The notes under the pieces: model-generated
What the model saw: the letters and a program-made list of their open reading frames with translations, nothing else
Database searches by the model: none
What the model was told of the DNA's origin: nothing
Translations under genes and position numbers: made by a program
Part shown: one piece after another, positions 24,455-34,942 of the stretch
Layout of the letters: each line of letters begins with the position of its first letter
How positions within the stretch are numbered: the stretch's first letter is position 1
Sequence record: PQ850614.1
Origin: Escherichia phage LorandFenyves_Bas91
Length of the DNA: 64,000 nucleotides
Strand: one strand, 5' to 3'

Positions 24455-26299
24455 TTAGTGTGTATGCATCCAGTTAAGTCCAATCTGACAATCAGATGCC
24501 AGAGGACATTCCATATTCAGATACTCGCCAGCTTTCTTAACACAAAGCTCGGTGTGCTCTTTGAGTTTCTGTACATCATTACGGTTTACTGAGAATTGAC
24601 CTTCATCGTGCATATCAATTACCTTAGCACAACGAACCTTATCTTTCTCAATCCACTTGTTAAGGAACATCATAGCATATTTCATAACAACAGCACCAGC
24701 ACATTGCAGGAGTGTGTTAAGGGCTTTATGAACCATAACCTTACCAGTGGCATCCCGTCTCATTGTAATCTTACGACCATCAACTCCAATCAAGTATCCT
24801 TGAGCAGCTTTCTCTGTCATACGATCAATGAGGATTGCAATACATGGATTCTCTGCCAAGAAACGTGCTCGCATCACTGAACCTTCGTCAGCCCCACCAC
24901 CTACAATTGAACCAAGCTTAGCGTCGCCAGCACCATAGTTAAATGCATAGATAAACGTCTTAGCGTTGTCACGAGTAGGAAGACCAGCAAGTTTCTGGTT
25001 GTGGGAGTGGATATCACCTTCAAGGAGAATATCACGATACATAATAGCAGAAGCTAAACCACGTTCTGCCAGAGCTTTCTTAGCTGGGTTGTTCTCTTCG
25101 ATTGCCTCAGCAAGCATATCCCTACACTCTTTAATGAGGTAGTGAGCGAGCATACGAAGTTCAAGTCCAGAACCATCATACCCTAAGAATACTTCTTTAC
25201 CAGCGGGTATGTAATATTTGTAAGCGCCTACAGGTTTGTCTTTCTTCCCCGGCTTACCTTTCTCGTAAATTACGTTAGTACCTTTTCGTATATAACAACC
25301 ATCAGGAACAACGTTAGTAATAACGAAAGGACGAGAGTGATCACTGTCTGAGTTATAGTCAGACTCAAACAAACTGCGACACTCGTGACCAAACAGACCA
25401 CGGGAGGGAATATTAACCACGATACGATGTTTGAATCGAAAAGTCGGCGTAGCGCAGCTGTTAGCTTCTGCCGAAAGTTTACCATCTTCGCGTTCCTTTG
25501 CTATGAGTCCACTGATAAGACCTAGCCTGTGAGCCGCTACAACGCGTCTCTTAAGCAAACTTCCGACACTCCCTAGCTCACCCCCTAACCCTTCTTCAAG
25601 AGTCTCCTCGAGGTTTGTAGGAGCTGTAGGCCACTTGTTTGATGTGGCTAGTGCTTTCTTAATCTCATCAAACGTTACAGGATTACGGCGATTAGGGTTC
25701 AACCCCAAACCAAATACGTAAGCCTTCATGTAATTCTTAGTCTTAAACCTGAAATGCTTTTCTAAGAACTTCTTAATATCAGCGTCAACCATCTCGGCTG
25801 TCTGCTTCTGCTTAGCATTGCCTCGCATCCAAGCAGTATACCATGCTTGGTATGTTCCATACTTTCTCATATCTTTCTTAATTTCGAAAGTATTCCAAGG
25901 CTTCTTAGATACGTTAAACTCTGGAGGAAGAAAGCCCTCATCCATAAGAGCTTCTTTAACTCGTGCATCTTTCGATGGGTCAAAGTCTACGTATTCGACA
26001 CAGGTGAAAGCTCCACCAATATCTTCTCTCTTCAGCCCAACCCTATCACAATAGGCTTGAGGCCACTTCTGTAAAGCTCCAGACTTCTTAAATGGCTTCA
26101 TGTAAGTAGAGCCATCTAATCTCATCTTAGGTAAGAGAGGAATCAACTCTCTGTCAATATTAACAATAATCTCTTTAAGGAGGTGAACATACCACCGAGC
26201 ATTTCTTCGGTTGAAACTCACTCCGTGCTTTGCTTGCTTAGAGATTATATCAGCGACAGTCATCTCTGTCAAAAATGGAAGAGCGTCCGGGTTGCTCAC
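24455..26299 (-). CDS. DNA polymerase, family A polymerase domain
   Basis: Motif A (GYDGSGLELRMLAHY), motif B (RDNAKTFIYAFNYGAGDAKLG) and motif C (VIDMHDEGQF) all present. Confidence 0.9.
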   Translation of the reverse strand: MSNPDALPFLTEMTVADIISKQAKHGVSFNRRNARWYVHLLKEIIVNIDRELIPLLPKMRLDGSTYMKPFKKSGALQKWPQAYCDRVGLKREDIGGAFTCVEYVDFDPSKDARVKEALMDEGFLPPEFNVSKKPWNTFEIKKDMRKYGTYQAWYTAWMRGNAKQKQTAEMVDADIKKFLEKHFRFKTKNYMKAYVFGLGLNPNRRNPVTFDEIKKALATSNKWPTAPTNLEETLEEGLGGELGSVGSLLKRRVVAAHRLGLISGLIAKEREDGKLSAEANSCATPTFRFKHRIVVNIPSRGLFGHECRSLFESDYNSDSDHSRPFVITNVVPDGCYIRKGTNVIYEKGKPGKKDKPVGAYKYYIPAGKEVFLGYDGSGLELRMLAHYLIKECRDMLAEAIEENNPAKKALAERGLASAIMYRDILLEGDIHSHNQKLAGLPTRDNAKTFIYAFNYGAGDAKLGSIVGGGADEGSVMRARFLAENPCIAILIDRMTEKAAQGYLIGVDGRKITMRRDATGKVMVHKALNTLLQCAGAVVMKYAMMFLNKWIEKDKVRCAKVIDMHDEGQFSVNRNDVQKLKEHTELCVKKAGEYLNMECPLASDCQIGLNWMHTH

Positions 26300-26315
26300 T
26301 TTATACTCCTTTAAA

Positions 26316-26738
26316 TTATTGGTAAAGTAAATCTGTAAATGCTTGGTTATCTTCTACTACATTCAACATGGTAGCTTCATCACTATAAGCCCTAACCGTC
26401 CCGTTGACAACTGTCCAAGGAGGAGGTGGAGGTGGTGTATGGTTAGCCCTAGCTTCACGAGGTTGCTCTCGTACTAAATGAGCCACAACCCTTTGGTTAG
26501 CGACTTCTTCTCTTTCTCTAATAGCTCTCTGGATATAGGCCAGCTTCATGCCCCAAGCTTCTTCAAACTCTTGAGGATGCTTATCACTGATAACCACATA
26601 CTGACGTTCAGAAATACCAGAGCGAATCTCTGATAATAATTCATGGAACAAATCTAGTTCGTGCTCAGTGAGATTCATTTCAATATCATCCCACTTTAGA
26701 ACTAGGAAACGGTTTTGGTGTCTAGCTGGTAATGGCAT
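26316..26738 (-). CDS. hypothetical protein
   Basis: 140-aa ORF with poly-proline tract. Confidence 0.4.
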   Translation of the reverse strand: MPLPARHQNRFLVLKWDDIEMNLTEHELDLFHELLSEIRSGISERQYVVISDKHPQEFEEAWGMKLAYIQRAIREREEVANQRVVAHLVREQPREARANHTPPPPPPWTVVNGTVRAYSDEATMLNVVEDNQAFTDLLYQ

Positions 26739-26741
26739 AAC

Positions 26742-27026
26742 TCAACCTCTTGGGAATGGCATCAAAAATTCCACAGCAGATTTAATTTCACTATTGATTC
26801 TTGAATCACGATAAGAGATAAACTTACCTTTGCTATCACGTAACATCACATGAGTTCTGGCTGTTTTGTGAGGGAGTAGTGTGACACTAGTTGGGATAGT
26901 ATCAATCCCTACAGCGTATTTGTCAATAGTCTTACTTTCAGCCAACAGATAAGACCAAGTACGCGGTTTCTTCTCCGGGCGGTTGGGGTATGTGTCTCGA
27001 ATCTGTACCATAGCTAACTTATTCAT
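26742..27026 (-). CDS. hypothetical protein (tandem paralogue of the next gene)
   Basis: Shares ...TART.V.LR...GKFISY...FPxG with 27028-27282. Confidence 0.45.
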   Translation of the reverse strand: MNKLAMVQIRDTYPNRPEKKPRTWSYLLAESKTIDKYAVGIDTIPTSVTLLPHKTARTHVMLRDSKGKFISYRDSRINSEIKSAVEFLMPFPRG

Positions 27027-33012: not shown

Positions 33013-33021
33013 TCTTATTCC

Positions 33022-34383
33022 TTAGTTATTTGTTTCCATGTCAAAAGAGATTCCACGACCCGCTTCATCGGCAAACCGAACTGTTCGGGTTTGAGGTTCT
33101 AATACTTCAGGGTTGTTAGCAACAAACCGATCAGCGAGACTACGACTGACAGTCTCAGCTAATTCACCATGAGAAGGGATATCAAGACTACCTACCACAT
33201 CTTGGGCCACACCTTCATCAGTCCACACAGCCCTAACAGGTGCGTTGATATCACCAACAGCAAAACCCTGACCAGAGAACTGACGTGCGCTAACAGTTAA
33301 ACCGTTTGGTCGACCACGAGAAGGTCTAGCCATCCATCGCTCCATAGAATCACTTGTAATACCAAGAGCTTCTTCAAAAGATGTTCTACGAGTAGGGCTT
33401 ACTCTTCGTGACTCTTGTGCTCGACGCATTGCAGGGGCTACAAACACCCCTTCAATTGCATTGTGTCGGTTAGGTTCCTCTTCTCGACCAAGCAGATCAC
33501 CACCCGTGTTAGTCGTTAAATTTGTCAACCCCTCAGACCAATACGCATGAATCTGACCAGAACCGTGAAGGCTAGACATAATCTGAATCTCTTCATAAGG
33601 GATTCCAAAGAATCGACTCATGTCTCGGTTGACACAATATAGAGCACTTGTTGTATCTTCAATAAGAGAAACCTGACCTAATCCATTGACTAAATGACTA
33701 ACTGGCTGAGGTGTGGGAAGATATCGAGTTTGGGCCATGTATTGATGTGCAACTGCTGGAGAGGAAAATCTCAACACTTGTGAGTTAGGCCACTTCTTGT
33801 GAACATACCTGATTTCACGACTAGAGACAACCACTGGACAAGGGGAAGTCATAGCCAAATATCCGTGAGAAGTCATGAATAATTTGTCAAGAGTCATCGC
33901 ACCACGGCACATCATAGGAAAATTATCCAATACCTCTTCAATAGAAGTAGGATAATTAAACATGAATTGGATACGAACCCCATTCCACTGAAACTCAATA
34001 ATATCAGTGAATGTTAATTGAGAACCCCCAGCATAGGATTCGTTTGTAGCTTCAGCAAGAAGTGATGCATATTCAATATCTTGTGACTCTAGCCATTCCT
34101 TCACATTACTTTCAATCTCCCGTCCAAGCTCTTGCCAACGATCAGTTGGGATGAAAGTGTTTTGAGTTCTTGGTGTTTGTCCTCTGACAATAAAGATATC
34201 AATGTCATGTGGAGCTATGTTATTAAGGACAGCATCACGAACAGCCCCACCAGTAATGATGGGACAGATACCATCTGGAATCAAGTTGTTGTTAATCAAC
34301 TGTTCAATGAAGTGACGACCAACAGTGATATCAGGTTGTTGAGCAACCTTATCTTCAATTTGGTTAATCGGGATAACAATCAT
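33022..34383 (-). CDS. Pol-beta-superfamily nucleotidyltransferase (CCA-adding/poly(A)-polymerase-like head domain)
   Basis: N-terminal ITGGAVRDAVLN...HDIDIFIV matches the GGxVRD...DxD head motif of class II tRNA nucleotidyltransferases; start at internal ATG. Confidence 0.55.
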   Translation of the reverse strand: MIVIPINQIEDKVAQQPDITVGRHFIEQLINNNLIPDGICPIITGGAVRDAVLNNIAPHDIDIFIVRGQTPRTQNTFIPTDRWQELGREIESNVKEWLESQDIEYASLLAEATNESYAGGSQLTFTDIIEFQWNGVRIQFMFNYPTSIEEVLDNFPMMCRGAMTLDKLFMTSHGYLAMTSPCPVVVSSREIRYVHKKWPNSQVLRFSSPAVAHQYMAQTRYLPTPQPVSHLVNGLGQVSLIEDTTSALYCVNRDMSRFFGIPYEEIQIMSSLHGSGQIHAYWSEGLTNLTTNTGGDLLGREEEPNRHNAIEGVFVAPAMRRAQESRRVSPTRRTSFEEALGITSDSMERWMARPSRGRPNGLTVSARQFSGQGFAVGDINAPVRAVWTDEGVAQDVVGSLDIPSHGELAETVSRSLADRFVANNPEVLEPQTRTVRFADEAGRGISFDMETNN

Positions 34384-34384
34384 T

Positions 34385-34942
34385 TTACATTTTCCAATAT
34401 AATGAAGGTGGGTCGTAAGGGTCAAATCCCGTGAGTTCACACAAGAAAAGATAAACCTTAACAGTTAAGTTAACGTCCTGTTCACAATAAGTAAACATAT
34501 CTTCAGTGAAAGCATCCCATGCTTCCTCTTGCTCACCATAATCGCCCTTAAGCTCTCCTAAGAACTCACCCCACTGCTTCAAACCATGACCTCTTGGGCC
34601 ACGTCTAGGGTCGCCTTTCGGATACTCAGGACTGTCACCAATACGGTCAGGTTTAAGATATCGACTAAGACATAAAGTGTCAAAGACGTTAAAATTATAT
34701 TTAATCAAAGAGGGATACATCTTTTTCAGAGCAGGTAAGTCGAAGTCAATAATATTATGACCCACTAGTACATCTGCTTCTGTAAGTTTACGAATCCCAT
34801 CTTCAATTTGGTGAGGCCGATAGCCCCACCTTTCACCAGTTTCAACATCAAAGATATAAATACACCATACTTTAGTTATGTCATCGTACAGTGCATTACT
34901 CTCGATATCGAATGCAAACACTTTCTTCTTTTTCTTTACCAC
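34385..34942 (-). CDS. DEDDy 3'-5' exonuclease (family-A proofreading domain, separate ORF)
   Basis: Exo I FAFDIES, Exo [11 protein letters not shown], Exo [12 protein letters not shown]. Confidence 0.7.

Follow-up and report, generated by a model that had tools for sequence, protein, structure and literature searches.

In the 64,000 nucleotides of Escherichia phage LorandFenyves_Bas91 analysed here (sequence record PQ850614.1; this whole stretch is called the window), the replicative DNA polymerase is a T7-type family-A enzyme divided over two distant genes, one for the polymerase proper and one for its 3'-5' proofreading exonuclease, with the gene of a short thioredoxin between them. The best explanation of the locus as a whole, which we hold to be probable, is that a T7-type polymerase was split at the linker between its domains, that the two subunits reassemble, and that the thioredoxin is a redox-active member of a nucleotide-metabolism cassette and not a processivity subunit. 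We assign the window to a phiEco32-like Kuravirus (Gordonclarkvirinae) phage of E. coli, because its polymerase open reading frame (ORF) shares 99.8% protein identity with phiEco32 gp53, as it does with SkaterBoy_Bas90, SU10 and dozens more Kuravirus records, and because its gene order follows that of phiEco32 gene for gene. The same order is found in Bas90, and the region from gp33 to gp75 is near-identical and collinear. Every gene in the region under discussion lies on the minus strand, and all window coordinates below refer to features of that strand.

Two genes for one T7-type polymerase

The polymerase subunit (614 amino acids; 24455-26299) starts with a GTG codon just behind a GGAG. Pfam DNA_pol_A matches its residues 361-611 only (E 2.5e-23), and a profile built from 90 homologues aligns over its full length with T7 gp5 residues 204-704 (hhalign; probability 100%, E 2.2e-60). 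Invariant in all 90 homologues are D375 of motif A, R443, K447 and Y451 of motif B, and H564-D565-E566 of motif C; Y451 aligns with the motif B tyrosine of T7, the position of dideoxynucleotide discrimination. Against the PDB, phmmer scored T7 at 1.2e-32 versus 1.5e-6 for Klenow. The AlphaFold2 model is confident (pLDDT, the predicted local distance difference test, 93.4), and its top Foldseek matches are all T7 gp5 (E 2.6e-26; Bst polymerase, 4.8e-16). We conclude that the predicted protein is a family-A enzyme of the T7 clade, closer to T7 gp5 than to Pol I, with its catalytic residues intact.

One mark of the T7-like family-A enzymes (cluster 5 of Czernecki et al.) is a 3'-5' exonuclease domain on the polymerase chain itself; the polymerase ORF has none. 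A cryptic exonuclease was considered and rejected: the profile alignment begins at T7 residue 204, and a hidden Markov model (HMM) of the exonuclease subunit found no match in the ORF, though it detected the six fused relatives in the alignment. In the AlphaFold2 model the N-terminus is helical, and the insertions of the protein form a helical bundle and a 55-residue beta element.

The exonuclease is encoded 8 kb away by a 185-residue ORF (34385-34942), the homologue of phiEco32 gp74, which starts with GTG preceded by GGAG and overlaps the stop of the primase-helicase gene by 7 nt. It matches Pfam DNA_pol_A_exo1 (E 1.3e-8) and a PHROG family named 'DNA polymerase exonuclease subunit', and BLASTP aligns it with T7 gp5 residues 5-196 at 33% identity. 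The Exo I (DxE; D12/E14), Exo II (Nx3D; N63/D66) and Exo III (Yx3D; Y152/D156) residues are invariant in six divergent homologues and align with those of T7. In the PDB only T7 gp5, through its N-terminal domain, is related to it by sequence (E 1.5e-12), and a non-proofreading DnaQ-like nuclease was rejected on the ground that nothing else among solved structures matches; the kinship is with an editing domain that belongs to a polymerase, and not with free-standing nucleases such as DnaQ or RNase T. We conclude that the ORF encodes a DEDDy proofreading exonuclease of the T7 gp5 type. Among its 149 best library relatives, sorted by length only, 79 exceed 540 amino acids, which fits fused polymerases, and 38 have 250 or fewer; stand-alone T7-type exonuclease proteins are not rare.

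Since the exonuclease corresponds to T7 residues 5-196 and the polymerase to residues 204-704, the split falls at the interdomain linker with no sequence lost. A split intein or trans-splicing was rejected, as neither new terminus carries extra sequence. From the exonuclease stop to the polymerase start there are 8,085 bp, an interval in which phiEco32 has 20 annotated genes. T7 gp5 itself (PDB 1T7P and others) is a single polypeptide, and for each half it is the top match in both sequence and structure. The likeness extends to the motif B tyrosine, to the flanking genes (gp4-type helicase upstream, 5'-3' exonuclease downstream) and to the acidic C-terminal tail of the helicase. On all these points the preliminary description of this DNA, which had reported a polymerase ORF with motifs A, B and C and no exonuclease domain, a separate ORF with Exo I, II and III motifs beside the primase-helicase, and between the two a thioredoxin gene, was accurate, and neither of the two findings that it had named as capable of overturning it (a hidden exonuclease in the polymerase ORF, or a DnaQ-like identity of the separate one) emerged.

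Much of this is already on record. In RefSeq, phiEco32 gp53 is annotated as "DNA polymerase; lacks 5'-3' and 3'-5' exonuclease domains", gp74 as "DNA polymerase exonuclease subunit" and gp65 as thioredoxin, and the annotation of LUZ24 likewise splits the exonuclease subunit from the polymerase. According to a 2023 paper, the whole group shares this separation (PMC9965538). For phages of the C3 morphotype, a conserved thioredoxin was hypothesised to couple with the T7-like polymerase and raise its processivity (PMC7881722, 2021; Privateer), and thioredoxin is among the few genes common to all sequenced C3 phages (PMC4281155). Czernecki et al. (2023) presented the exonuclease/polymerase split of a T7-like cyanophage as the first in family A and named neither phiEco32 nor LUZ24 (PMC10201439). 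The split and the thioredoxin-processivity idea are thus both published, and our observation largely re-discovers the annotation of phiEco32-like phages. The new points are small: clade-specific insertions in the polymerase, the picture of a cassette inside the gene, and a candidate single-stranded DNA-binding protein (SSB).

The window has the same genes in the same order as phiEco32, with minor accessory-gene differences such as a nucleotidyltransferase of 453 amino acids in the window and 437 in phiEco32. The thioredoxin of the window reaches up to 100% identity with those in other Kuravirus records.

Gene order and expression class among relatives

We compared gene order in the window, the complete LUZ24 genome, regions of LAh_6, Privateer and GAP52, and several metagenomic contigs. 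Transcription order is the same in all: primase-helicase, exonuclease subunit, a variable block, polymerase, a 248-residue protein (not in LUZ24) and a 5'-3' exonuclease. The start of the exonuclease gene overlaps the helicase stop in LUZ24 as it does in the window. The distance from exonuclease to polymerase gene runs from 2.3 kb in LUZ24 through 3.2 kb in an 85-kb contig (L011), 5.6 kb in Proteus phage Privateer, 8.1 kb in the window and 8.5 kb in Cronobacter phage GAP52 to 9.6 kb in Aeromonas phage LAh_6. The variable block holds nucleotide-metabolism genes (dCTP deaminase, thioredoxin, a Dps-like protein, ThyX and PhoH, with NrdD/NrdG in relatives). In the nearest fused relative, the helicase gene is followed by a ligase gene and then by the fused polymerase, as in T7. 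These loci suggest a gene order of the T7 type, with a cargo cassette that would have expanded within the polymerase gene where its two domains meet.

LUZ24 (Bruynoghevirus) has the same domain-boundary split, annotated as gp25 (exonuclease subunit) and gp34/gp36 ('DNA polymerase part II'). It shares with the window the order of helicase, overlapping exonuclease, cargo and polymerase, as well as the thumb and palm insertions and the thumb-tip strand described below. It differs in that its 2.3-kb gap holds small genes, with neither a thioredoxin nor a nucleotide-metabolism cassette, in that the two polymerases share only 39% identity, and in that its polymerase gene is further broken by gp35, an 'endonuclease VII', between gp34 and gp36 (L006 17999-20305). 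An inserted endonuclease gene also interrupts the polymerase gene of LAMP, FH3 and KarlSchell_Bas89 (H103, H105, H107), and tblastn matches of the polymerase to these relatives and to LUZ24 therefore fall in two pieces; the polymerase gene appears to be an insertion hotspot in them.

The 80 best IMG/VR loci comprised 65 with a fused polymerase and six in the distant-split clade. Adjacent splits of the type seen in the cyanophage S-SBP1 were also among these loci (for example L032). The PolA of S-SBP1-like cyanophages resembles the present system as a T7-like family-A enzyme whose exonuclease and polymerase are separate genes and whose thioredoxin-binding region is shortened (PMC10201439). Its genes, however, are adjacent and overlapping and arose by a recent +1 frameshift, whereas those of the Kuravirus-type clade lie 2 to 10 kb apart, in the window with 8,085 bp and about 20 genes between them; the Kuravirus-type split is also old and widespread and bears clade-specific insertions.

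The two halves would also belong to different expression classes. In phiEco32 and SU10, the genes upstream of gp68 form the early class and gp25-68 the middle class (PMC4281155). In the gap between genes that precedes the gp68 homologue, positions 31830-31838 match the published middle-promoter motif of phiEco32 and SU10 (AAATGTATA, one mismatch), with the exonuclease gene upstream of the match and the thioredoxin and polymerase genes downstream. The nearest motif upstream of the polymerase is an exact match (TAATGTATA, 27705-27713), in agreement with the description of SU10 (PMC4281155); the count of such motifs in the window is not above chance. Given the published class boundaries, exonuclease and helicase would be early genes, and thioredoxin and polymerase middle genes.

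In the mechanism that we propose, the gene of the replicative polymerase would have been divided at the exonuclease/polymerase linker within the Kuravirus replication module. The proofreading half would be translated directly behind the primase-helicase, in the published early region of near-identical phages, and the polymerase half, whose gene stands 8 kb further downstream, would follow a middle promoter. A non-covalent union of the two proteins most likely restores a T7-like holoenzyme; its partners would be the gp4-type helicase, the 5'-3' exonuclease and, probably, an SSB of the gp2.5 type. The arrangement raises the question of how a family-A polymerase stays stable and proofreads with its editing domain on a separate protein from a different transcription class.

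The phage thioredoxin and the polymerase thumb

The thioredoxin gene (30381-30656), the homologue of phiEco32 gp65, encodes 91 amino acids that match Pfam Thioredoxin (PF00085; E 2.1e-13). Its CAPC occupies residues 12-15 and its cis-proline residue 56 (I55-P56); CxPC and the cis-proline are invariant throughout the phage thioredoxin family. The sequence alignment starts at E. coli TrxA residue 24, leaving some 20 N-terminal residues (beta1-alpha1) absent, and on this alignment the five-stranded thioredoxin fold is incomplete. Where E. coli has W31, G74 and K90 the phage protein has Q, S and L, and the residues at R73, I75, P76 and G92 are kept (R53, I55, P56 and G73).

For this protein we lean slightly towards a redox role in deoxynucleotide (dNTP) supply: it would most likely be a redox-active member of the cassette, for example reducing the class I ribonucleotide reductase (RNR) of the host. 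In the synteny comparison its gene sits among nucleotide-metabolism genes. A phage-encoded RNR as its partner in this genome was rejected, as tblastn with NrdA, NrdB, NrdD and NrdG found no RNR in the window and the phiEco32 annotation has none; the RNR partner, if there is one, would therefore be that of the host. A separate observation is that thioredoxin, a small ORF and a Dps/ferritin-like gene are linked as a trio in Kuravirus, Privateer and GAP52, with the order inverted (30665-31468 in the window; L008 14001-15023; L009 11001-11982). The small ORF of the window is a predicted membrane protein, and the trio is possibly a redox or iron-handling unit.

That the thioredoxin would instead be a dedicated third subunit, seated on the thumb tip of the polymerase as TrxA is on T7 gp5 and giving processivity, we regard as unlikely; what probability remains falls to another function, or to both. 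Several observations nevertheless weigh against the redox role and for the third subunit. The polymerase belongs to the T7 clade, and the part of the thioredoxin-binding domain that it keeps, a homologue of the C-terminal half, has the contact strand (T99, V101 and E102, equivalent to T7 T327, V329 and E330), and the thioredoxin for its part keeps the four residues aligned with E. coli R73, I75, P76 and G92. Its gene lies between exonuclease and polymerase in most lineages, and both it and the polymerase gene are middle genes in the published classification (PMC4281155). It is retained in all Kuravirus and Grimontviridae relatives, and in every enterobacterial C3-type relative, whatever their RNR content (none in the window, NrdAB in Privateer, only NrdDG in GAP52), as a role independent of a phage RNR predicts. 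The invariant CxPC speaks for redox chemistry and against a dedicated subunit; on the other hand, since T7 polymerase binds only reduced thioredoxin, a structural role would be compatible with an invariant CxxC.

The thumb tip itself offers a mixed picture. T7 uses host thioredoxin and encodes none; its binding domain has about 77 amino acids with two basic loops. The preliminary description had called for an alignment with T7 gp5 to look for this insertion. A homologue is present at polymerase residues 53-110 (25970-26143), but it is truncated: its 58 residues, against about 77 in T7 (residues about 262-338), match the C-terminal part of the T7 domain and lack some 32 T7 residues, the two basic loops among them. 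In a molecular dynamics study, the T7 gp5 residues touching thioredoxin were E319, P325, T327, V329, E330 and Y265 (PMC5984650). The strand A97-F98-T99-C100-V101-E102 of the window aligns with T7 P325-E330; across the clade, F98 never varies and G96 and P97 hardly do.

The conservation of this strand does not follow the presence of a thioredoxin. It is equally conserved in the LUZ24-like Bruynoghevirus phages, which encode none, and in the Grimontviridae, which do encode one, the residue aligned with T7 E330 is tryptophan; both points count against a dedicated subunit, as do the shortened element and the changes at the E. coli G74, K90 and W31 positions. An HMM search of the complete LUZ24 genome found no thioredoxin. 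Homologues of the window thioredoxin occur in 128 phage records, 0 of them from Pseudomonas, and this polymerase is found in 106 Pseudomonas records. On a 119-kb contig (L010), no thioredoxin was found within 10 kb of the polymerase. We found no polymerase feature that changes with the presence of a thioredoxin: lineages that have one and lineages that lack it share the thumb-tip strand, and an insertion after motif A likewise does not track it. The Lahexavirus LAh_6 points away from the polymerase too, as its thioredoxin-like gene stands instead near the class I RNR genes (NrdAB), with HNH endonuclease and methyltransferase genes between. Taken together, the comparative evidence counts against, and not for, a link between thioredoxin and polymerase, and the suggestion in the preliminary description of a dedicated replisome served by the phage thioredoxin is unsupported as it was put, given the truncated element, the strand kept in phages that have no thioredoxin, the invariant redox motif and a gene that travels with nucleotide-metabolism genes.

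The cyanophage Syn5 offers the closest precedent, and it points the opposite way from a dedicated subunit. Syn5 shares with the window a phage thioredoxin and a T7-like polymerase, and for it both an RNR-reductant and a processivity role have been discussed; it differs in having its own RNR, a fused polymerase and experimental data on its thioredoxin. Its thioredoxin boosts phage DNA replication experimentally, and AlphaFold3 confidently places host thioredoxins, and not the phage one, on the polymerase (preprint 10.1101/2025.10.05.680603). The same preprint states that what phage-encoded thioredoxins do had never been investigated before. The clade described here provides a natural comparison for the question of what such thioredoxins are for, with LUZ24-like phages lacking thioredoxin, Kuravirus having thioredoxin and no RNR, and Privateer having thioredoxin and NrdAB. 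Outside it, four marine IMG/VR contigs (L020, L021, L023, L026) carry a thioredoxin homologue about 2-2.5 kb downstream of a fused T7-like polymerase (E 1e-10 to 4e-12); thioredoxin genes near T7-type polymerases therefore recur beyond the clade.

If the polymerase uses any thioredoxin, TrxA of the host would be at least as good a candidate as the phage protein. We consider it doubtful, though somewhat less so than a dedicated phage subunit, that the polymerase relies on E. coli TrxA as T7 does, with the phage thioredoxin unrelated to it. The contact strand is conserved clade-wide, in phages without a thioredoxin of their own as well, and the Syn5 predictions favour host thioredoxins with high confidence. 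R91-E92 further correspond to T7 R318-E319, a site of genetic interaction with TrxA, in the MAFFT alignment only; hhalign aligns this stretch otherwise. Yet the element is a truncated one set within a large domain that would fold autonomously, the predictions of Czernecki et al. gave no complex for another split T7-like polymerase with a similarly shortened thioredoxin-binding domain (PMC10201439), and a literature search on the dependence of Kuravirus on host trxA found nothing.

The polymerase might also need no thioredoxin. Two insertions set it apart from T7 gp5, which has neither: a basic helical one of about 90 residues in the thumb, after thumb helix H1 (residues 135-225; 25625-25897), and a beta-rich one of 55 residues in the palm, before motif A (residues 312-366; 25202-25366). 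In the alignment of 90 sequences, the thumb insertion (54-91 amino acids) is present in 84/84 exonuclease-less polymerases and the palm insertion in 81/84, and neither in any of the six fused relatives. The thumb insertion has 19 K/R versus 8 D/E in the window; over the whole alignment its net charge has a median of +8 and is positive in 85/90 sequences. Predicted alone, a thumb fragment (residues 50-240) gives a confident fold (pLDDT 91.5). A real possibility, which we still place below even chances, is that these insertions replace the thioredoxin-dependent functions, by gripping DNA or the acidic tails of helicase and SSB, or by docking the exonuclease subunit in trans; the clade-specific basic thumb domain would then supply the contacts to DNA or partners. 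The tails of the helicase and of the candidate SSB both end in a hydrophobic residue, as in T7, which suits such docking. Against this, the association of the insertions with the exonuclease-less state is a correlation, and since the six fused sequences may be one lineage, it may reflect a single evolutionary event; a structure search with the thumb domain found no fold relative, so that no match hints at a function.

The estimates for host TrxA and for the thumb domain concern processivity of the polymerase, and exclude neither each other nor those given for the role of the phage thioredoxin. A holoenzyme of three gene products, in which exonuclease and polymerase take the short phage thioredoxin as their own processivity factor and the basic thumb domain holds the exonuclease, the thioredoxin or both in trans, seems improbable to us. 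Whatever its partners, a T7-type polymerase that is split into a natural heterodimer and whose basic thumb domain folds by itself could interest enzyme engineers.

Neighbouring and cargo genes

Upstream of the exonuclease subunit lies a T7 gp4-type primase-helicase of 596 amino acids (34936-36726; phiEco32 gp75), with a Pfam DnaB_C match (E 9.9e-11) and a weak Toprim_2 match. Its acidic C-terminal tail ends in ...DGASPW, and in relatives the acidic residues of the helicase tail are followed by a final F, Y or I. Downstream of the polymerase, a separate 5'-3' exonuclease gene (16958-17776; phrog_107, E 1.7e-64; homologue of phiEco32 gp33) occupies the position of T7 gene 6.

Between the two, the 248-residue homologue of phiEco32 gp40 (20354-21100), annotated as hypothetical, ends in an acidic tail, ...YEDDDSSPF. 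In T7, the acidic tails of gp4 and gp2.5 dock on the polymerase, and the tails encoded in the window resemble them. The protein is conserved downstream of the polymerase in LAh_6, Privateer and two contigs. Because of its T7-like tail and this conserved place we propose it as a candidate SSB of the gp2.5 type; it has no sequence match in the PDB and no BLASTP similarity to LUZ24 gp37. In LUZ24, the annotated gp2.5-like SSB ends in ...DDEDAPI, resembling the LUZ24 helicase tail ...DDDTPI.

The cargo between the two polymerase genes begins, 1 nt past the exonuclease stop, with a nucleotidyltransferase of 453 amino acids (33022-34383; phrog_12715, E 2e-262). It shows a weak match to the PolyA_pol head domain of poly(A) polymerases and CCA-adding enzymes, and was seen only in Kuravirus and in two related IMG/VR contigs of 88-90 kb (L014, L015). 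It is followed by a dCTP deaminase (32479-33012; Pfam DCD, E 3.5e-34), a gene that comes after the exonuclease gene in every larger relative. Further along are the Dps/ferritin-like protein (30905-31468; Pfam Ferritin, E 5e-7; phrog_3636), whose gene is linked to that of thioredoxin in all enterobacterial relatives, the flavin-dependent thymidylate synthase ThyX (29709-30365; Pfam Thy1, E 1.4e-43) and a PhoH-like ATPase (27725-28462; Pfam PhoH, E 4.5e-56).

Small paralogues occur at two places in the block. Three in tandem (69, 69 and 65 amino acids; 31863-32478; phiEco32 gp69-71) end in ...V(I/H)YY or ...KVYY. Two others in tandem (94 and 84 amino acids; 26742-27282), just upstream of the polymerase gene, share the C-terminal motif ...TART.V.LR...GKFISY......AVE.L.PFP.G. 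An ORF of 109 amino acids (28631-28960) is annotated as 'DNA ligase' (phrog_6466); it is far too short for a complete ligase and may be an isolated accessory module.

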